From Callorhinchus milii (Eukaryota): a stretch of 64,000 nt of DNA. A program made the translations under genes and the position numbers. The DNA is taken from NCBI RefSeq assembly GCF_018977255.1, contig NW_024704742.1, positions 81,718,001 through 81,782,000 on the forward strand. The letters run 5' to 3'. Below the pieces are notes generated by a model. It saw only the letters and a list, made by a program, of their open reading frames with translations. It was not told the origin of the DNA and did no database searches. Below, piece by piece: positions 3,029 through 54,446 of this stretch (its first letter is position 1; every line of letters begins with the position of its first letter).

Positions 3029-3109
3029 ACCTGTGTAAATGCAATGGAAGGTTACTGTAAGCTAATTGTTTTATTGGGCAATCTCTTAGGTTACACCCAG
3101 CTTCTGTGC

Positions 3110-3205
3110 AAAAGGTTGTCAACCTGAAGCATTAACTCACTTTCCTCTCTCCATAGATGCTGCTTGACCTGCTGAGTGTTCCCAGCAACTTCTGTTTCTA
3201 TTTCT
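3110..3205 (+). mobile_element. Penelope-type terminal-repeat remnant
   Basis: 'actcactttcctctctccatagatgctgcttgacctgctgagtgttcccagc' matches the right arm of the 32035-32264 element. Confidence 0.65.
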
Positions 3206-6763: not shown

Positions 6764-7324
6764 GGGGCAAGCAGTCAACCCACTGAGTTTAACAAAATGG
6801 AGGGAACAAGTAGAAGAATAGGGTAGAATTTCACAGAGATAGAGAGGTGTTGGGATGTGGAGGGTTGATAGCTGAGGGTGAGGAGGACCTTGAAGTCCAT
6901 CTGGAGCATTAGCAGGAACAGAAATCTATATCAAAATTATCTCAAAATCTCAATCTTTGTGGTAAGTGAAGTGCTTTATTGATCTCAACATCTCCAGCCA
7001 ACAACCTACTTATCCTTTCACTAGTAGCAAGGTTACATGAAGCCTGTTGAGATCCACAGTTGAAAATACCCATTTAAGACCACTGCGTGGCTAGGTCCCA
7101 AGGTTATGCAAAATCGACTCAAGGAAGCACTAAAATTAAGTTGTTTAAAGTACTGACATCTACTGATCCAGTATCGAATCAGTTTCAGTGAGGCTGTTGA
7201 ATTATGCACCTTAAGCAGAACCATCCCTTTAAACCAGCAGCTTTCTGATCTGGGTGTATATGGGATGAATCTTTGCCTGAACAAACCACCCTCTCAATGC
7301 TCTGCCTGCATCAAGCATCAAGCA

Positions 7325-8171
7325 TCCTATATCCCTGATGTTCTGACAGCCTGCCTATCAAACCTCAGGAGCTGGATGAGCGCAAATTTCCTTCAACTGA
7401 ACTTTGACAAGATGGAAGCCATACTCTTTGACTCTCGTCAATATCTAAAACCTGATGGTTCTCACCTCTTTCACTTACCCGACCTCCCACTAAAACTCTC
7501 CAAACCCATATGCAACCTAGGCGTCAGGTTCGACCCCCAATTATTCTTCCTCCCCCACATCCGGTCCCTCACCAGCACCGCTTTCTTCCACCTCCGACGC
7601 ATCGCCCATCTCCGCCAATACCTCCCTCCGAAAGCCACTGATACCCTGGTCCATGCCTTTGCCACCTCTTAGCTGGACTACTCCAACGCCATCCTCGTCG
7701 GTCTCCCCTCTACTACCATCCATAAAATCCAGATTATTCAAAACTCTGCCGCCCACATTCTCATCCGCTCCCTGATTGCTCCAGTCCTTGTCAGACTGCC
7801 TGTCCCAGAGAGGATCAACTTTAAGATCCTCACCCTTGTCTTCAAATCTCTCCACTCCTCTGCACCCCCCTACCTCTCTGACCTCGTCTCTCCTCAAAAC
7901 AGTTCCCGTTGCCTCCATTCCTCCAGGTCTGGCCTCCTCCTTGGCCCCCGAGTCCTCCACTCCATCCTCGGTGGCCGTGCCTTCAGCCACTATGCTCCGA
8001 GGCTCTGGAACTCCCTGTCTCACTCGCTTCGCTTCACCCCCTCTCTTCCTATGTTCAGGTCTCTGCTGAAGATCTTTCTTTTCGACTGCGCCTTTGGTCA
8101 CCTTCCTCCCTTTCCCTCTGGCTCGGTATGGCGTGGAGGGCGTTATATAAATCCAAGTTGTTGTTGTTGTT
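7325..8171 (+). mobile_element. 5'-truncated L2 LINE (ORF2 C-terminal region), second L2 tail type
   Basis: ORF 7265-7672 contains CLSNLRSWMSANFLQLNFDKMEAI...NLGVRFD...FFHLRRIAHLR...LVHAFATS; ends 'ggagggcgttatataaatccaag(ttg)n'. Confidence 0.93.
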
Positions 8172-8176
8172 ATAAT

Positions 8177-8268
8177 AAAAACTCAAAATACTGCAGATGC
8201 TGGAAATCCGAAACAAAAACAGAAGTCGCTCGGAACAATCGGGTCCATGACCCTTTGTCAGAACTGTC
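8177..8268 (-). mobile_element. Penelope-type terminal-repeat remnant with degenerate hammerhead core
   Basis: Reverse strand reads cagtt-CTGACAA-agggtc-atg-gaccc-GA(ttg), then 'ttcggatttccagcatctgcagtattttg'. Confidence 0.7.
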
Positions 8269-8390
8269 CAATAGCTCAGCGATTAGAGCACTCGCTTTGC
8301 AAGCGAGAAACCTGGGTTCGATTCCCGGCAGGGTGAAACCTTGGGCAAGTTTCCTTGCTTCATATGCCTGATAATAATCCCTCAAAAATC
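8268..8390 (+). mobile_element. Young SINE, 5' half
   Basis: 'tagctcagcgattagagcactcgctttgcaagcgagaaacctgggttcgattcccggcagggtgaaaccttgggcaagtttcc'. Confidence 0.88.
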
Positions 8391-9649
8391 ATCTGGGTCC
8401 CAGACACACCTTTTCTCTCGCTTGTCTGCCTATTTTGCTGCAATTCTTTTCCCTTGTGTTCTGCAGTGTTAACACCTCTTTTCCCCTGTTTTGTTGCAAA
8501 CCCCCCTTTGTTTTGCATTATTAACACCTCTTTAACCCATCATCCCCTTTCCTCTACCCCATTTTCTCCTTTGTCTGTACCATTAAGCAAGAATGTTACA
8601 GAACAAATGCAAGAATGAATATGAAGAATAAACATAATAATCCTTGCATTTGATATATCTAGCGCATTATCATGTCATTGACATGTCTCAAAGTGCTTCA
8701 CAATCTTCAATGTCAGCGCCTTGGGATGTCCTCCCGACTTGAAAGGTGCTTTATAAATGTAATTTTGTTGTGGTTGTAATGACTGTGCATTGCAGGCAAA
8801 CACAGAAAAACAGCTCATAACATTATTGGGGTCTAATTTATAGCATTTCTTAATGGGATTTCTTACACAGAGGGAGAAAGCATTATGGTAATCAAAAGTT
8901 CATGCCAACTGAAAGAAGTCTGCTCTGACTTCCGAAGCAGGGTTGGATGGGAATTCTAACATACCACATATTAGACTGTAAATTAATAGCTCCACCAAGG
9001 ATTCAGGACATGAAATCAATTTTGATGCAACTAAATAATTGAGAGAAAATAGCACACGAATGAAAACAGACTTCTTATTAAGGAATCTCACTGGAAAACT
9101 CGTACTTTACACCGCTTCTATTTTTCTCTCAAAACGTTGATCAACTTGCTGTGCATTTCCAACTATTGCTGATTTTATTTCGGGAAAATTAAAGAACCCT
9201 TCAGCCCATCGGTGGAAAGGTATGCTGGTTTAGAGTGGCGTAGGATTGTAACATTCTTCTGCAACTGCTACTGGTAATGTGACATCCCTGGTCTGACACC
9301 AAGTCACTGTTGATACCGCACCAGCAATCTAATTGAATGTTGCTTCATCCTCCAGAGGCCTTGTGCTGCCAAAAGACCAGGTGAATTTGGCAGCCACTCC
9401 AGAGGTATTGATGTCCCTGAGGGTACCACGGACAGAATGGTACAGATTATGTTACTGATGGCCATCATACTATATTTTCTGTGGCACACATGGTGCAGCA
9501 CTATAACAAGCAGACGTCGCCCCTTCACTCCTTGTATTACTAATGTCTGCCTTGTGACTTGCAGTAGTGATGGGAATGCATTGTGTCTGCGTTGGGATGG
9601 TGGGGAGAACTGGTACGTGCATTGAATAAAAGTGACGAGGTGATGTTGA

Positions 9650-20855: not shown

Positions 20856-23800
20856 TAACAACAACAAAATTACATTTAAAGAGCGCCTTTCACATCGGGA
20901 GAACGTCCCAAGGCACTGGACAATCAGAGGTCAGGACCCGAGTATGGGGGTAGGGTCCCAACCTCTGACTGTGGGGTAGGGGTGAGGGAAGGCAGAGAGG
21001 TGGGAGGGCAACCAAAGGCACGTTCGAAGAGACCAGCTTTGAAGGAGGTAAGGGAGGAAGTGAGGCAAAGGGACCATGGGATGGAGTTTCAGAATGTGGG
21101 GTCAGAGAGGCTGAAAGCCCGGCCACCGATGATAGGGCAGGTCGGGCGGGAGACATAGAACAGGCTGGAACCCGCTAAACGGAGGGAGCGGGCAGGTTGG
21201 TAGGGAGTCAGCAGATCAGAGAGGTAGGAGGGGGCAAGGCCATGGATGGCCTTGAAAATGAGGATGAGGATCTTGAATTTGATCCTCTGAGGGATGGGGA
21301 TCCAGTGGAGTCGGGCAAGGGTGAGAGTGATGGGGTCACGGAGCCTGGTACGCAAGAGTACACGAGCTTCAGAGTTTTGGATGACCTGCAGCTTGTGAAG
21401 GGAAGAGATGGGAATGCCGATGAGGAGGGAGTTTCCATAATCGAGACTTGATGTGACGAATAACTGAGTGAGGGTTTCAGGAGTCTGAGGGGTGAGGCAG
21501 TTGCAGAGTCTGGCAATAATAATAATAATAATAATAATAATAATCCTTGCATTTGATATAGTGCTTTTCACGTCGGGAGGACGTCCCAAAGCGCTTCACA
21601 GAACACACTGTAAAGTGAATTGACTGTATATTTGTGGGCGAACGCGGCAGCCAATTGTGCACAGCAATGTCCCACAAACAGATTGAAAATGACCAATTTT
21701 ATTATTGTTTTTGGTTTTGGAGGGATTATTATTAGGTGTGTGGAGTAAGGAAACTTGCCCAAGGTTTCGCCCTCTGCCTGGAATTGAACTCAGGTCTCTC
21801 GCTTGCAAAGTGAGTGCTCTAACCACTGAGCTACAGGACTCCACATGTTGTGGAGGTAGTGTTTCTGATTGACTTAGTGAGGTTGAGTGTGCAGTCGTGG
21901 AGGCTGATGCTGCCAGCGCCCGAGTTGGGCCTCGGTCTTGCTAACGTTCGTCCAGGACTTGATGTCAGACAGGCAGTCGGTCAGGACGCCAGTGGTCCTG
22001 GAGTTGACGATGGAGGCAGAGAGATAGAGTTGGGTGTCATCCGCAAATATGCGGAAATTTACCCCATGTCTGTGGATGATCTTGCCAAGAGGCAGCATGT
22101 AGAGGGTGAAAAGGAGGGGACCGAGGACAGAGCCCTGAGGAATGTTGCACAAGACGGTGCGGGGGCTGGAGGAGAAGCTGTTTGCAGAGACAAAGTGGAG
22201 GCGGTGTGAAAGGTAGGATCTGAACCAGTCAAGGACAGAACCTTGAAGGTTGAGGTGGGAGGAGAGGCGGTGGAGGAGGATTGAGTGGTCCACGGTATCA
22301 AAGGCGGCGGAGAGATCGAGGAGGATGATGAGGCAGAGGGAGCCCTGGTCACATATGGTCAGGATGTTATTTGTGACCTTGACCATAGCAGTTTCCGTGC
22401 TGTGGGCAGCACAGAAACCCGATTGGAGGGTTTCATGGAGGGAGTGGGAGGAGAGGAAAGAGCGAAGCTGGGAGGTGATGGCTCTCTAAGACAGAAAAAG
22501 GAGGTGGGAGATGGCCCGGTAGCTGGATTGCTGGGTCAAGGGAAGGTTTCTTCAAAGTGGGGCTTATAGTGGCTGTTTTGAGGGGGATAAGAACAGTGCC
22601 AGATGACAGGGAGAGGTTGATGATGTCGGCGAGTAGTGGGGCAAGGAGGTGGAGCTGGGATTTAAGGAGAGGGGTGGGGATGGGAGCAGGTGATGAGCCT
22701 CATGGAGGATATGGTGGTGATGACAGGGGAGGGGGTGACAGGTTCAAAGGTCTGAAAGGAGGGATGGGTAGTGGTCGGAGTGTGGTGGGGGAGGTTTAGG
22801 GAGAGGGTGGAAGTTGGGAGGGCAGTGGCAGCTGAGCGGATTCCCTCAATTTTGGTGTCAAGGAATTCCAGCATTTCCTCACAGTGGGAGTCGGAGGAAA
22901 GAACCTGTGAGGCATGGCGGGGAGGGCGGAGGAGCCAGTTGGTGGTGGAGAACAAGAGCCTGGGGTTGCCCTTCGCCGCCAAGATTAACCTGGAGTAGAA
23001 GGATGATTTGGCCGAGGTGAGAGCGGAGCGATAGGTTTTGATGTGGTCCAGCCAGATGTGCCACTGGACCGTTAGGCTGGATTTGAGCCATGTATGTTCA
23101 GCAGCCCACACCTGGGCCTTGAGCGAGCGGAGGTAGCTGGTGAATCAGGGTTAGGATTGGGAATAGGAGGCAGTTTGGGAGGTGAGGGGGGCAAAGGCGT
23201 CAAGTGTGGTGGAGAGGATGCTGTGGAGGAGAGACGGTGGTAGATTTGGAGACAGTGGGGAGAGGGATATAGTGTTGCGGGAGATGAAATGGTGGTCAGA
23301 GATGGCCTTGTCAGTGATGGTGACATCCGAGACCCTGATGCTCTGGGTAATCACCAGGTGGAGCGGGTGGCCATGAATGTGTTTAGCAGAGTGGATGTGA
23401 AGGGAGAGGTTGAGAGAGGAGAGGAGACGTCTAAGGAGGTGGAGCAAGAGGGGGTGAAGTGGAGGTTGAAGTCGCCTAGGATGAAGAGGCGGTCGGAGCA
23501 GAGTCAGAGGGAAGCTGGAAGGGTGGAGATGTCAGAGATGAAGGTGGGAGAGTATTTTGCGGGGTGGTGAATTAGGAGAATTTTTAGTGAGAGATGGGAG
23601 GGATGGCAGAGGGCAAGGTGTTCAAAAGAGGGGAGTGAGCCAGCATTGGAGATGAAGGCCACACCACCGCCACGACGGATGGGGTGTGGGGCATGGTGTT
23701 AGATATAGCCACGTGGTGTGGCCTCAGTGAGGGGGAAGGTGTCACCTGGGTGATCCAGGTTTCCGTGAGGGCCATAATATTGGAGATGGAGCGCCCATTT

Positions 23801-24345
23801 TGAAGGCCAATGTGGAGCGGACATATGGCAGGGGCATGTGTGGGATAGGAGGGGATAGTGGATTGGTTGGCAGGGAGGGTAGGGATGCGGATGAGGGAGG
23901 AGAGGTTAGACTCCGGGGTCTGGGTCCGGGGTGGCTTGCAGCGGTAGTGGGGAATGGGACAGTCGATGTGGCTGCTGCTGGACAACGAACACTGAGTGCC
24001 ACGATGAGCCCGGCGGAGGATTCCCAGGCTGGAGCAGAGGAAGGCAGTGGGGGGGGGGGGGTTAAGCAGAGATAGGAGGTGGGGAGGGCGGAGAGAGAGA
24101 GCAGGACAGAGCGGGAAAGTTGCAGGCAGGGAGGTATTTTGAGGGAGGGCCAGTTTGGGTCAGGGGCAGCAGCCAAGATACGCACTCTGGGACGAGAGTC
24201 GACGGGTTTAGTGGGACATTGTCAGCCTGCAGGAGGCTGTGGCGCAGAGTGGGGAGGGCGCTCATTGTGGTTAGCAACGAGCAGCCTGCAGGGGAAGGAC
24301 GGGGAGGGAGACAGACTGAGGATGGGAGGGAGGGAGACACTGATA
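20856..24345 (-). mobile_element. Near-full-length decayed L2 LINE (APE endonuclease + reverse transcriptase), frameshifted and interrupted by a SINE
   Basis: APE motifs LQNGRSISN..IMALTETW (23584-23985) and HIHGHPLHLVI..ISDHHFI (23151-23447); RT motifs LLDLSAAFDTVDH, PQGSVLGPLLF, FADDTQLY (21874-22386); C-terminal VTSSLDYGNSLL..LHWIPI (21089-21514); (GTT)n tail at 20856. The 5' boundary is approximate. Confidence 0.95.
21515..21844 (-). mobile_element. Young full-length SINE inserted in L2 ORF2
   Basis: Complete head-to-(ATT)n copy; the L2 frame ...LHNI|ARL... resumes on the other side. Confidence 0.95.
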
Positions 24346-30205: not shown

Positions 30206-32034
30206 TCTAATTCTCCTCATGTACACCCTCTATTCCCTTCTCCCTCATGTATGCATCATGTATCCTCTTACATATTTGATGCTTTCTGTTTTCTTCATGC
30301 TGCCCCGCATGAAGGGCACTATATGAATGCAAGTTGTTGTTGCCATTGTTGTTTCATACAGTTCCCAGCAGTGAGTTCCACCTTCTCACCATCCTCTGCA
30401 TGAATACGTTCTGAGGCACTGCTGTACTCCTGTGAAGAATTTTGTAAGAGAATAGCACACCATGAATAAGATATAACATTGAGAGCACAGTGCGTGAAGA
30501 ATTGTCTTGTTCTCAGTTTGCCTGATGTAACTGAAGAAGTCTGATACAAATCTGATCTGGAATCAGCTGCAGCTACTGAAACCAGGGCAGCTATTCCCTT
30601 TGTTGTGATTAGACTACTTTGGACAATTTAGAGAAGCTTGAATTCACTTTGGAGTGAGTGAGAGAGAGAGTACTGATTGTGGCTGTCCACTTGCGTATTG
30701 GTTTTTCCATTTTCCTCTGATATCCGTGCTCTGGTATAGCAGTTTGTGGAATTTTCCTAAACGCTCCATTGCTTCACATCAGCTTGACACAATTTGAAAG
30801 GAAGAAATTCTTATTATGACACACTGACTATTTCCAATTTAGAGCACGTCTACGTATCCTTTCGAGTTGCTAAACACATAAGATTTGTGAACTATAATTA
30901 CTCGTTTTCTTTATAAAGATGCATGTTTAAGCAATCTAAGATGCATGATTCTCACAAAATAAATGTTACATTATTATCATTCCTGTATTGCAGAGCATCT
31001 CCCTGCTTCCCCACGTAGACATGCTTTTGGTTGAGATATTCCACTGAATCCCCAGTGATGATTATATCCCTGCCTGCCTCTCCTGTTCAACATCCAGTCT
31101 ATCTCTGTCTGTCTATTTGTGTGTTCTGACACACAAGATTATGTTCAATCTCTTCATTGTGATTTGCTAGACTATTTCTTTCTCTCTTATAAGTCTTTTA
31201 CTGAAGCAAGATGAACTCAGTGCCAAACTTTAATATCTTCCAGATTCAGGAGACTAATCTCAAACTCTTAAAGTGAATACATGAAACAGCTGTTTTCTCA
31301 TGGATGATTCACTCTCGCCTCCTTTAATTATGAATAATAATAATTATCCTTACATTTTGATACAACGCATTTTGTTTCAGAAGCATGTCTCAATGTGTTA
31401 CACAGGGTTCATTGTAAAACGGAATAAGTGTGTACTTTGTGGGTAAACCACACTGCATGTGTTCTCAATCATTGTTCATTTCTAACCATTCGTGAAGACT
31501 GGCCATGGAACTAAACACTTTCAAATAATGGCATTCTGAGGAATAAACAACACGGCTATGGATATTCGGGAATGTCGGAGGGGATTGAGTTTTAATTCCT
31601 GGAGGCAACATTTGAGTGCTGCTTCACATAGTGTTAAGGCTGCTGTGTTTTTTTAATGTTGATAAAGTCTTATTTGAGATATTTAAACTTTGTTCTCCAC
31701 ATTCCAGAAAAAAAATTCTGAAACAAAAACGCACTATTTTTCTGCTCTTTTTACCCATGTATTCATCTACATATATAATACTACTAATCATACATGTAAG
31801 TGAATAGTTAGATAAATGGGCTGACTAAAAATTAGACAGACAGACAGAAAAATACGGACAGATAGTTTAAATAGGCAGATTAAACAGATCGAGTCATACC
31901 ATTTAGCCTGACAGAGACTAATAGATATATTAGTCAGACAGAATAAATAGACAGATAGATTAAGCAAACAGATAGATTAAACAGACCGACAGATTAAGCA
32001 GACAGGCAGATTAAGCAGACATGTAGATTAGGTA

Positions 32035-32264
32035 CAAAAACAGAGAGAGCTGGGAAAACTCAGCAGGTCAGGCAGCATCTATGGAGAAAGAAAAGTGAGT
32101 CAATGTTTTGGGTCCATGACCCTTCATGTTCTGACGAAGGGTCGTGGACCCGAAACGTTGATTCACTTTCCTTTCTCCATAGATGTTGCCTGACCTGCTG
32201 AGTTTTCCCAGCTCTCTCTGTTTTTGTTTCAGATTGCAGGATCTGCAGTATTTTGTGTTTTTTT
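32035..32264 (+). mobile_element. Palindromic Penelope-type terminal-repeat insertion
   Basis: 91-bp inverted arms (32035-32125 / 32136-32226, 6 mismatches) plus a tail; flanked by ca(t/g)gtagattaggta direct repeats. The Penelope assignment rests on the hammerhead core and inverted architecture. Confidence 0.75.
32126..32165 (+). ncRNA. Minimal type I hammerhead ribozyme-like motif
   Basis: CTGACGA (32131-32137), A, stem II GGGTC-gtg-GACCC, GAAA (32152-32155), C, GTT putative cleavage triplet. Stem I is weak in this copy. Confidence 0.65.
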
Positions 32265-33279
32265 CAGGTAGATTAGGTAGCCAGGTAGATTAAACAGACA
32301 GGCAGGTTAGGTAGACAGAGTAAATTGACAGACAGAGTATATAGACAGACAGGGTAAGTAGACAGACAGATTAGGTATAAAGACAGACTGATTATTGTTT
32401 GGTTATTTTCCACGAATGACAGTGATTATGTGTTTCTTGGGCTGGTGACAATTGAGGATGCAGGTAGTGGTATTCATCCCTTTCCTTTAGGTTTAAACAC
32501 ATTTACTGCTGTGCTCCCCATAGTTATCAGACGTAGGAAGTGTTTGATCCAGTCTTGTGTTAACCTCGAAAGATACAAGGAAATTGCAGTGAATTCTGAT
32601 TGCAAGGTATTCATTTTATTGACTTGAAAGGATTGATGCACAAACCAGAAACAGAACTAAGAATCTGCTCAACTAACTAAGCTACCTCAGCCTCAGATGT
32701 TACAGTGATCAGGTGAAAAATCATCAACCTCTTATTTCTCCAGAAGGTCAATTCATCCAGAGTTGTACCTAACCCACCTGTCAATCATTTGGTTTGCCTT
32801 ACCTCTGACATCCCATCATGTGACACTGAATAAACATTCTTCAAGTATAATAATCAATGTAACAGTGTGTTTTCCAATGACCATTAGAGGGTTGTGCTCC
32901 CTCATATGGTGAATAAATAAAATCATCCAATGCTTTTGGACATTACTTCTTAAAGATGTATAAGGTTACAAGTAGCTCCATGTCTCCCAATGGATCAACC
33001 TCAATATCTTCATCTGCGCCTACAAATATCTTCACACCCCAGCACCAACCTATAAATGTGATCTTCTCCTACCAAACTCCTGTGCTCAAATCCTACCTCA
33101 TTAACCACACCTATGGACACCTCTCTCTTCCCCCTTCCTCCTCTTCCTTCTCTCTTGCCTAGTGTCTGATCTTGTCATTGTGAATTGCTCTGAGCCATCG
33201 ATTATGAAGGGTACTACATAAATGCAAATTATTGTTGAATCTTCTTCCTTCTGTGTGTGGGGCAAAAAATACCTGACTC

Positions 33280-33894: not shown

Positions 33895-33960
33895 AATTTG
33901 CTGAGTTTTCCCAGTTCTCTTTGTTTTCAGATTTCCAGCATCTGCAGCATTTTGTATTTT
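33895..33960 (+). mobile_element. Penelope-type terminal-repeat remnant
   Basis: 'tgctgagttttcccagttctcttgttttcagatttccagcatctgcagcattttgt' matches 32197-32257. Confidence 0.65.
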
Positions 33961-36972: not shown

Positions 36973-37860
36973 TACATAAGAGCATAAGACTTAGGAGCAG
37001 GAGTAGGCCATTCGGCCCCTCGAGCCTGCCCCGCCATTTGATAAGATCATGGCTGATCTTCAGACCTAACTCTAATTACCTGCCCTATATCCCATATCCC
37101 CTAATCCCTCTATTTTATAAAAATCTATCAGTCTCAGCCTTGAAGATGTTCAAGGACTGAGCATCTACAGCCTTCTGTGGTAGTTTATTCCATAAATTCA
37201 CTATCCTCTGAGTGAAGAAATGTTTCCTCAACTCTGTTCTAAAAGGCTGACCCTTAATTTTAAGACTGTGACCCCTGGTTATAGATTCTCCTACCAGGGG
37301 AAACAGACCCTCAGTGTCTACTTTATCCAGCCCTTTAAGAATCTTATATGTTTCAATAAGATCCCCCCTAATTTTTCTGTACTCTAGAGAATACAGCCCT
37401 AGTTTATTCAGCCTATCCTTACAGGTCAGTCCCCTCATCCTAGGAACTAACCAAGTGAATCTACGCTGCACCCCCTCGAGGGCAAGTATGTCCTTTTTTA
37501 AATAAGGAGACCAAAACTGCACACAATACTTTAGGTGCGGCCTCACCAAGGCCCTATGCAGTTGCACCAATACTTCCCTACTCTTGTACTCTAAACCTTT
37601 TGCAATGAACGCTAACATGCCGTTCGCCTTCTTAGTTGCTTGCTGCACCTGCAAACTAACTTTTTGAGACTGGTGTACAAGGACACCCAAATCGCTCTGA
37701 ACACTAACACTATCTAATTTCTCCCCCTCTAGAAAATAATCTGTTCTTCTGTTTTTTCTACCTAGGTGAATAACTACACACTCCCCCGCATTAAATTCTA
37801 TCTGCCACCTACTCGCCAACTCCCCTAACCTATCTATATCCCGTTGCAATCCTTTTGCAT
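36973..37860 (-). mobile_element. 5'-truncated CR1 LINE with open ORF2 C-terminal frame
   Basis: 244-aa ORF 37115-37849: QRDIDRL..WQIEFN..DLGVLV..KKANGMLAFI..LVRPHLKYCVQFWSPYLKKDILALEGVQRRFT..RGDLIETYKI..TRGHSLK..FFTQRIVNLWN; CR1 3' stem-loop and (TCTTATG)-type tail. Confidence 0.96.
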
Positions 37861-39994
37861 AATAGTAAAAAATAGCATGGCTGAAAGTTGATGAAAACCT
37901 ACCTCAAATTATTCCTTAATTTCCATTAGAAACAGCTTTATTAGAGAAGCTCCTTTGTGATCTGAGCGGTGCATATTTTCAAATGCAATGATTGTGATTT
38001 ATGGGTATTTGTGTAACAGATTATTTACATGCTGTGCTTGCACTTTCCCATCCCCTACTTCGCTAATCAAAGTTCCTTTTCTGTTAATAATAATAATATT
38101 CCTTGTGTTTGATATAGCGCCTCATCAAATTGTTGAGAGAACTCAAAATTCTTCACGGAATTTACTGTAAAGTGAATTGACTATTATATTTTGTGGGCAA
38201 AACAAAGAAACATGTTGTTGAATGTTACATGCACTGAAGAAATCCATACCATAATTTTGCTTGTGCCTCCTTTAAGATGTAGGATTTCAATAGCTTTCAG
38301 AGCTGAACTTAGACAAAAAAATGACCTGGGTATAGTAAAGAAAACAGTCTATATTTAGAGTTTTAATATGAGGCAGGTGAGAGAAGCTCAGAGCTTCATG
38401 CATTTTGCACTATGACATTTTGTTGCAAATGCCTTGAAGGTATTGAAAATAATTGGTGACCATCTTTGTTGTTTTTTCCTCCCTTGGCACTGAAGCCAAG
38501 GTCTGTCCTTACAGCCTGTGACTGGGCACTAAGAAGTGATTATGATGAAGCCCAGAACACATGTCACAAGCGAATATCTGTCCTCACATCAGCTACATGT
38601 GGGATGAATATCACTGACAGATTGAAGAGCTATATTTTACAGGCAAATAATTGGACAACTCGTCTGCCAATGTGAGCAGGTGTATGTCAAAAATCGAGAC
38701 AGCAGAACACAGCAACATATTATAGGCAGAAGTAATAAAGTAGTAACATTTAATTCTAGGTACGGTACCTAGAATTTTCTTTACCAAGATCTTCAGTATT
38801 TATGTGCATTCAGCTGAATTAAAGTGATTAAAATGGAAAATTATGTAGCGATCAATAATAAGTGTCAGTAATATTCTTGCTGAATTCCTGCTGAGTGCAA
38901 TATTCCACTGACAGTAGGATTCACAGGAATTCAAACAGTGATGCTTTGATAACACAACAATTATTCAGTGTTTAAATAGATGATAAGGCTAATTTATGCC
39001 ACTTCAACATTGGGGTCTAATAGAAGTTGGTTTTGTGAAGTCTGGCCTTTTGGTTCATGAATTTGACAAAGTACACTGTAAGAAATTTTAGATTTATTTG
39101 GCACCTTTCATGGTGGGAAGACGTCCCTAGACATTCAATAATCCTGGCTGGGCACCCAAACTAGGGGATGGGAGCCAAGAGGGGTTAGAGGAGAAAGGTG
39201 ACCGAAAGCGTAATCAAAAAGGTAGGTTTTGAGGCAGTCCTTGATTGAAATGAGGGAGGGAGAAAGCTGGATGGAGTTCAAGAGAGTAGTTACAAAGAAA
39301 CAATCATGAATGTGTTAACCCTGTAAGTGAGCTCAGCTTTCCCAGAGTCAATGCTACTAAGCAGCAGAAAACGTCAATGGTGATCCTGAGGTGCTGCCTT
39401 TGGGGGTACAGACAAAGCCACACATGCCTATGGAGGCAGCTGGGACTCAGCAGCACAGGCAGCACGAGAGTAAAGTTAGTGGAAATTGATTACTTTTCTC
39501 ATTTTTGTCTGTTCATGTCGACGATTATTTTTCAGTTTTGTTTGATGTTTATTGGTATCCGACAAAACAAATAGTCGATTTCCTGGATATCAGGTCACCT
39601 GGAATGGATATCACTTCCTCTATGCTACTTATAATAATAATATTAATAATAATAATCTTTATATTTGGTTTAGCTCCTTTGATGTTGGGAGTACACCCTC
39701 AAGCCGTTCACACTGTAAAGTGTAGTGACTATGTTTTGGGGGCAAATGCCGCAGCCAAGTTGCATACCATAATGTCCCACAAACAGCCATGAAGTGAATG
39801 ACCAAATTAATTTATGGAATGTTGGCCAAAACACCAGAAGAAACTCCCTCCATGCACATTATGTGCAGGAAGCGTCACTAACATCGCATATGGAATACAG
39901 ATCAGTTTGGTTGCTGACTCCTGATCACTATCAATGACCTCTGCTGGAAAGTGCAGGAGAGGGGATATCAGGTACCATGGAGGAAGGGGAAGTG

Positions 39995-50282: not shown

Positions 50283-50388
50283 GCTCGTATTTGAGCAAAG
50301 GGACCCTCAGCACAACAGCACAGCTTTCATTAGGGCAGTCTTGAAAGCTGTGCTGTTGTGCTGAGGTTCCCTTTGCTCAAATACGAGC
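50283..50388. repeat. Near-perfect inverted repeat (47-bp arms, 1 mismatch, 12-nt loop)
   Basis: 50283-50329 vs reverse complement of 50342-50388. Confidence 0.95.
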
Positions 50389-53300: not shown

Positions 53301-53865
53301 TCTTGCTTTCAAAAGCCCCCAGAAAACATATATTTTCGACCATGCCTTTGGCTGACACCTTAAACTCTCTCACAGTACAGTTGCCAATAGTGTTGAGGCA
53401 CCTTCTTAAACACAGGTTGTTAGTTAAATTCAGGGGAAATTTAACTATTTATAACGCAATACAAACTACACTTGTATAGTGCCTTTCATCATATCTGGAG
53501 GCCATCTCAAAGCATTTCACATTCATGAAGAGGATGGGGAGGGGAAAGATGACCGAAAGCAAGGTCAAAGAAAGCAGGTCATAGGGCAGGCCTTGATCGT
53601 TGGTAGGGCGGAGCTGAGGTAGAGGGACTTCAGGATGGAGTTCCAGAGAGCTGGAGCAGAATGGCTAAAAGTTTGATTGTCGATGCAAACATATGTAATA
53701 TGATCTGCATTCATTTGGTGGAATAATAATGGCTGAGATATGCAGAGTGCCTCTAGTTACAATGTGACCTTCATAGCCCACATTAAAGAAATCCACCATT
53801 CAAATATATTCCTCAAAATAGTTACTGTAATTGTGAAAATAAATACAATAATAATCCTTACATTT

Positions 53866-54446
53866 AATAATAATAATAATCCTTGCATTTGATATAGTGC
53901 TTTTCACGTCGGGAGGACGTCCCAAAGCACTTCACAGAACACACTGTAAAGTGAATTGACTGTATATTTGTGAGCGAACGCGGCAGCCAATTGCACACAG
54001 CACTGTCCCACAAACAGTCGTAGATTGAAAATGACCAATTTATTATTGTTTGTTGTTTTGGAGGGATTATTATTAGGTTTCGCCTGGGGCAAGTTTCCTT
54101 ACTCCACAGATCAGAAGGTATCAGGAGGACTTCACAGTGCTTCACAGGATATAATAATAATAATAATAATAATCCTTGCATTTGATGTAGCACTTTTCAC
54201 GTCGGGAGGACGTCCCAAAGCGCTTCACAGAAAACACTGTAAAGTGAATTGACTGTATATTTGTGGGCGAACGCGGGAGCCAATTGTGCACAGCAATGTC
54301 CCACAAACAGTCGTAGATTGAAAATGACCAATTTATTATTGTTTTTTGTTTTGGAGGGATTATTATTAGGTTTCGCCTTGGGCAAGTTTCCTTACTCCAC
54401 AGATCAGGGGGTCTCAGGAGGACTTCACAGTGCTTCACAGGATATA
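53866..54446 (-). mobile_element. Tandem dimer (293-bp period) of a rearranged, 5'-truncated young SINE plus flank
   Basis: Paired ORFs at 53904/54197 are offset by 293; both units share the same 24-bp inverted fragment and ~45-bp flank. Confidence 0.92.

Follow-up and report, generated by a model that had tools for sequence, protein, structure and literature searches.

A fold-back insert with a minimal hammerhead motif in Callorhinchus milii as a probable doubly 5′-truncated insertion of a Penelope-like element

The palindromic insert at 32035-32264 of the 64,000-nucleotide stretch of Callorhinchus milii DNA that was analyzed (the window) is probably a dead, doubly 5′-truncated insertion of an endonuclease-bearing Penelope-like retroelement (PLE). 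The insert is asymmetric. [quoted passage not shown] The tail occupies the last 37 bp (32228..32264, + strand), has a T-rich end, and is found on one side only, without a mirror partner. Neither this tail nor the short helix I of the hammerhead (3 bp) is mentioned in the original prediction. The Penelope-type origin proposed there is supported by this layout and by the motif. Layout and motif are already in print, and the locus is a further case of described genomic debris.

PLE insertions are described by Craig et al. as 5′-truncated, often with an adjacent inverted 5′-truncated copy at the 5′ end, and as bearing a tail of 30-40 bp on one of the two ends (PMC8557442). Both properties are found here: the inverted 5′-truncated copy is joined head to head to the direct one, and the 37-bp tail is present at a single end (32228-32264). 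The family to which the insert belongs is, in addition, dispersed and high in copy number, and its copies are truncated to varying degrees at the 5′ end. Arkhipova et al. report an inverted pseudo-LTR (pLTR) that lacks 37 bp relative to the direct ones, together with a 31-bp tail (PMC3846280). A head-to-head inverted partner, a one-sided tail, a target-site duplication, and a short candidate frame are thus common to the insert and the PLE insertion units of these two accounts (PMC8557442, PMC3846280). The halves differ in measuring only 93 and 137 bp here and in carrying no coding body, and the insert is seen without its parent. The duplication is also longer, with 15 bp compared to 8-10 bp in the rotifer elements (PMC3846280).

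The inverted arms span 32034-32125 and 32136-32227 (92 nt, 93% complementary, 6 mismatches). They can be extended to 32034-32127 and 32134-32227, which gives 94 nt with 7 mismatches around a 6-nt loop at 32128-32133. Three of the six mismatches are CpG changes that result in G-U pairs, two are further G-U pairs, and one is an A-C mismatch, which confirms the earlier description of 91-bp arms with 6 mismatches, three of them CpG changes to G-U. At the arm differences 32091, 32162, and 32186, the family majority letter is present in one arm. All seven arm differences are C-to-T or G-to-A changes. The four CpGs within 32034-32227 are all retained in the right arm and all gone from the left arm, a split with a chance of 2/70 that does not allow for the intact core having attracted attention. 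The two arms could derive from different templates.

The insert splits a host minisatellite with a period of 17 (31830..32394). The 15-mers on its left (32020..32034) and right (32265..32279) are identical at 14 of 15 positions, while the runner-up 15-mer in the array reaches 12. As the host is a 17-bp minisatellite, similar flanking 15-mers are possible by chance. In a register test, the insert was deleted together with one of 25 trial overlaps (0-24 bp), and the 17-bp period was scored. Deletion of the insert plus 15 bp gave the best register, with 12/17 at lag 17 and 28/34 at lag 34. The register with zero duplication scored 3/17 and 7/34, and the second-best overlap 8/17 and 17/34. Because only the 15-bp overlap restores the period across the junction, the target-site duplication that had been suggested is real. 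In both same-species runs, contigs enter the insert from its left flank (31700-32060), with differing flank alleles, and no joint that bypasses the insert (an empty allele) is found among the 15 joints listed of 156 in the read contigs. The insert seems old. A short inverted match to the minisatellite unit lies ~800 bp upstream, at 31097-31130.

The hammerhead is a minimal type I motif on the + strand (32128..32162), recognized from its sequence and by a descriptor search. Helix I consists of 3 bp, of which two are G-U, between 32128-32130 and 32160-32162. It is followed by CUGANGA at 32131-32137, an extra A at 32138, a 5-bp stem II (32139-32143 with 32147-32151), GAAA at 32152-32155, and the palindromic AACGTT at 32154-32159, and the cut is predicted at 32159/32160. 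The core is thus present as originally written (32131-32159), and the assignment to the minimal type I hammerheads with a palindromic stem III is borne out at the level of the motif. The minimal-hammerhead descriptor matches once in the window (32131-32159), compared to a mean of 0.085 and a maximum of 2 matches in 200 Markov-1 resamples. All core traits of minimal hammerheads are found, namely CUGANGA, GAAA, UH, an additional base following A9, a G10.1-C11.1 pair, and a palindrome at positions 15.2-16.2. The type I core, the extra base, the G10.1-C11.1 pair, and the palindromic positions are those described for the minimal hammerheads of metazoan PLEs, which mostly occur as single scattered motifs, as here (PMC4209133). 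Pairs on opposite strands, 100-700 bp apart, also occur (PMC4209133). Helix I is 4-5 bp in the metazoan motifs (PMC4209133), whereas the insert combines a stem II of 5 bp with a helix I of 3 bp, whose pair probability is below 0.01. Substitution of the majority letters of the family at 32127 and 32162, as derived from the contigs, would lengthen helix I to 4 bp. The available text of the survey and two of its supplementary files name no cartilaginous fish (PMC4209133).

The search with the Rfam hammerhead models that the original prediction had proposed gave no match in the insert region. No hammerhead model matches at gathering score in the window, and none at E up to 10 in stretches of 501 and 71 bases. 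This outcome is expected because the motif has nearly no stem III. Sub-threshold matches to Rfam microRNA precursors were attributed to the generic long hairpin. At gathering score, the only Rfam matches in the window are seven tRNA-like SINE heads.

Only one of the two halves carries the intact core. The inverted copy begins at hammerhead A6 and is therefore without C3-G5. On the − strand, the left arm has additionally lost all four CpGs, G12 included. Without C3-G5 and G12, there is no ribozyme on the − strand. Among the family contigs, the catalytic G8 is replaced by A in 8.6-15.5% of the depth, the catalytic G12 is changed in 7.5-10.6%, and the loop G at 32144 is changed in 5.3-10.5%. All three are CpG sites. 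The 40 variant rows listed of 53 contain no non-CpG core change and no compensated stem II change at ≥5%. The copy at 3109 has two compensated stem II pairs, one of which is attributable to CpG decay. As G8 and G12 vary at the rate of CpG decay, the inserted copies look unselected, and the data fit an intact master motif with copies that decay neutrally.

The + strand of the insert folds with −181.5 kcal/mol (z = −24), and none of 200 shuffles is equally good. In this fold the probability of stem II is 0.0. Forcing the hammerhead in the full insert carries a penalty of 40.6 kcal/mol, compared to 4.6 kcal/mol in the direct half alone. In folds of the nascent + strand RNA, the core is captured by the left arm upon emergence, again with a stem II probability of 0.0. 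The original prediction had described a built-in off state, in which the antisense arm sequesters the ribozyme. The sequestration itself is reproduced in the computed + strand folds, but there is no sign of selection for it. The "built-in" part gains no support from the changes at G8 and G12, which affect 7-16% of the family depth, like those at the loop CpG. In these models, burial of the ribozyme is physically right for + strand RNA, yet it is a by-product that requires no design. The hammerhead would be a passenger inherited from the parent's pseudo-LTR, and if the + strand of the locus is transcribed, the hairpin would bury it as a side effect.

Three further copies of the family are found in the window, none of which is palindromic. 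The first (3109..3204, + strand) is an older solo copy with a decayed core that ends near the inner, tail-less boundary, at the equivalent of 32230. The second (8177..8264, − strand) is a solo copy with an internal deletion and a full tail that starts at the equivalent of 32127/32128. The third (33899..33960, + strand) is a short solo copy with a full tail and a worn flanking duplication of 11-13 bp. For the copies at 3109 and 8177, a search for flanking duplications gave none. Two types of ends can be differentiated in the window: the tail end at 32264, 8177, and 33960, and the inner end at 32035 and 3204. The − strand copy abuts, head to head, a truncated tRNA-derived SINE at its 5′ end, which starts at 8265 (8177-8391). 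No tandem of the family unit was found in the window, and the family's upstream motif is not present there at up to 3 mismatches.

The family was followed in four public sequencing runs, two from the same species (X3 and X4), one from a second organism (X7), and one that is presumed to be RNA (X18), by mapping their contigs onto 31700-32700 at 80% likeness. The runs contributed 7,926, 7,598, 18,122, and 2,828 contigs, nearly all of which lie inside the insert. Contig depth in the insert reaches 1e4-1e6, and the summed depth over the insert is 9,000-340,000 in the same-species DNA runs compared to 5-11 in most flank bins. Contig depth is not equal to copy number, and hairpin centers are possibly under-assembled. 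The family is plainly very abundant, the second organism included. The flanks are uncovered in X18, which says nothing about expression of the present locus, and X7 gives no continuous cover of them. Contigs become loose behind 32261, which marks the 3′ end. Loose ends before 32128 occur in 221, 195, 483, and 83 contigs, and their upstream sequence is shared with an agreement of about 0.4, which indicates that the parent continues in the 5′ direction. The upstream consensus of the family is pyrimidine-rich with CAG at its end (32128). A drop in depth from 32156 to 32135 was rejected as a truncation profile, as short contigs near the break of the reference yield the same picture. Pattern scans with two patterns across viral, metagenome, and prokaryote genome contigs gave no match in five of six. 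The one match, in a bacterial contig with 67% GC (L001), covers 22 bases only and was considered chance.

Fold-backs recur in the family, and their centers differ. Among the rows listed, at least 13 joints connect a left arm to a right half, and they represent 11 distinct centers besides the type of this insert. The left arms of the joints listed stop at sense positions 32137 to 32183, and the right halves start at 32128 to 32220. The depth across the center of this insert (32125-32128) is 0.3-0.8% of the depth at 32135. A center depth below 1% of the arm depth and the differing centers of the other fold-backs indicate that the palindrome is formed during insertion and does not itself move as a unit of 230 bp. 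In the presumed RNA run X18, one contig contains the joint 32124-32128, which is nearly the center found here, at a depth of 165 and with zero cover of the flanks. The family may therefore have a well-expressed fold-back at a different locus.

The insertion likely involved two start sites for reverse transcription. The protein of the parent would nick both strands 15 bp apart within the minisatellite, and each free 3′ end would prime reverse transcription on the element RNA. One copy would start at the outer site (the tail end, 32264) and the other at the inner site (32227), which lies 37 nt further upstream. Synthesis of the two copies would end early, near the hammerhead, and they would subsequently be joined. 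As both halves extend 26-32 nt beyond the predicted cut, the template would have been uncut by the ribozyme. The step with two primers is our inference, and self-priming is an alternative to it: the junctions described by Arkhipova et al. are mostly head-to-head and were explained by self-priming with an antisense template (PMC3846280). Support for two starts comes from the Poseidon element PAc of Anolis, in which the tail lies between two reverse-transcription starts, located 111-118 nt into a reading frame with its start at stem II (PMC11167929). For the same element, Frangieh et al. report that both target strands are cleaved, that a protein dimer is predicted, and that uncut RNA is the main template (PMC11167929). 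PAc and the insert would thus share an uncut template and a tail delimited by two starts, which in PAc are some 110-120 nt downstream of stem II (PMC11167929). In the insert, the distance from stem II is 89 nt for the inner end and 126 nt for the outer end. The steps of PLE insertion after priming are described as still unvalidated (PMC11167929).

An ATG-opened frame runs through the element end on the + strand (32183..32264), with 15 codons up to the inner end and 27 with the tail. Its ATG directly follows a pyrimidine-rich stretch with a terminal AG, and it might tentatively be regarded as a candidate start of the parent's reading frame. Comparable short frames of 12 and 22 codons are found in Pen2a_Av (PMC3846280). 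The PAc frame has its start at stem II (PMC11167929), whereas the only candidate ATG here lies 44 nt further. A Pfam scan of all 175 window frames of at least 70 amino acids detected no GIY-YIG domain, no PLE protein domain, and no host gene. It gave one real match, to RVT_1 at 21877-22485 (E 2.9e-20), and four sub-threshold matches. The RVT_1 match presumably belongs to an L2-like LINE. Broken LINE remnants are located at 21089-24221 (−), 7157-8100 (+), and 37115-37903 (−), and we take the LINE remnants of the window to be of the L2 and CR1 types.

A different origin of the 5′ end would make the direct half a complete copy instead of a truncated one. It would then be the full-length copy of a defined, non-autonomous, SINE-like mini-PLE RNA of ~136 nt, which is copied by a PLE protein from both nicks. 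The 5′ end of this RNA would coincide with the base of helix I, where a splice-acceptor-like AG may determine it. Both solo and fold-back inserts would result. The present copy does start at 32128, and the copy at 8264 starts at the equivalent place ±1, although the latter start was possibly set by the SINE junction. The pyrimidine-rich upstream consensus terminates in CAG at 32128, and in D. virilis an intron terminates where helix I begins, at its 5′ end (PMC4209133). No clear consensus emerges from the loose ends before 32129 (X4, 56 contigs; X3, 65 contigs), but the larger class, before 32128, shares upstream sequence, so that many copies extend further in the 5′ direction. Other right halves begin at 32130-32220 among the joints listed, and loose ends accumulate at 32128 because the reference itself is interrupted at this position. 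The classes of 5′ ends are, moreover, taken from the loose-end rows listed, beside which there are 1,023 further rows. A full-length direct half is unlikely on this evidence. For the family as a whole, it is doubtful that it represents a defined ~136-nt hammerhead-headed mini-PLE RNA, with a 5′ end fixed at a splice-acceptor-like AG, that is copied from both nicks at two start sites and forms a new hairpin at each insertion.

The model of the original prediction, in which the whole 230-bp palindrome is a mobile unit with a self-silenced ribozyme, is very improbable. A single clean duplication does enclose the entire insert, and both arms carry subfamily letters in common (32204 is T, as in about 57% of the X4 depth). 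A center depth of 171-269 in X4, compared to 5-11 in the flanks, suggests some other loci with a similar center, and one joint, 32124-32128, is common to X3, X4, and X18. Against these observations stand a center depth of only 0.3-0.8% of that at 32135 (below 1% of the arm depth), the many differing centers elsewhere, the three solo, non-palindromic copies within the window, and catalytic bases that decay at CpG rates. A ~230-bp non-autonomous unit is thus not upheld.

Equally remote are a solo insertion that acquired its left arm later by a replication template switch, which the small palindromes of stem II and AACGTT could have seeded, and a miniature inverted-repeat DNA transposon (MITE), which has similarly long inverted arms. 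The left arm terminates at the inner end of the family (also seen in the solo copy ending at 3204) and adjoins the duplication, only one side has a tail, halves occur on their own, and the hammerhead motif is intact. The one-sided tail, the solo halves, and the variable centers argue against a MITE or fold-back DNA transposon. Animal non-LTR retrozymes resemble the insert in that they are non-coding, carry a type I hammerhead, and are derived from PLEs (bioRxiv 10.64898/2026.07.22.740005), and they have been reported from one chondrichthyan (bioRxiv 10.64898/2026.07.22.740005). Retrozymes, however, consist of units arrayed head to tail, every one of which has a ribozyme (bioRxiv 10.64898/2026.07.22.740005), whereas the insert joins two copies head to head and has a single intact core. 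A non-LTR retrozyme was ruled out by the head-to-head pair, the left arm without C3-G5 and G12, and the lack of a tandem.

Further repeats are present in the window. An abundant tRNA-derived SINE of ~320 bp with an (AAT)n tail is found at 2880, 4891, 8265, 21774, 28128, 43086, 45729, and other positions, and truncated copies form a tandem pair at 53865-54446. A palindrome of ~106 bp (50283-50388, 90.6% self-complementary) is unrelated to the family and is possibly a small MITE.

As a truncated PLE insertion, the single locus has little weight, being one old copy among very many. No literature on this family in cartilaginous fish was found, and Repbase and Dfam, which were outside the search, possibly catalog it. 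If the family were a defined mini-PLE RNA after all, its thousands of junctions would document in the genome how PLEs insert by two primers, and the family would be a large source of endogenous hairpin RNA in chimaeras. Palindromic repeats are substrates of A-to-I editing in frog (PMC5625713), and by analogy intronic copies of the family would be natural editing substrates. The family offers many tiny fold-backs with clean duplications, two types of ends, and variable centers, and counts of their junctions could separate two-primer insertion from self-priming.
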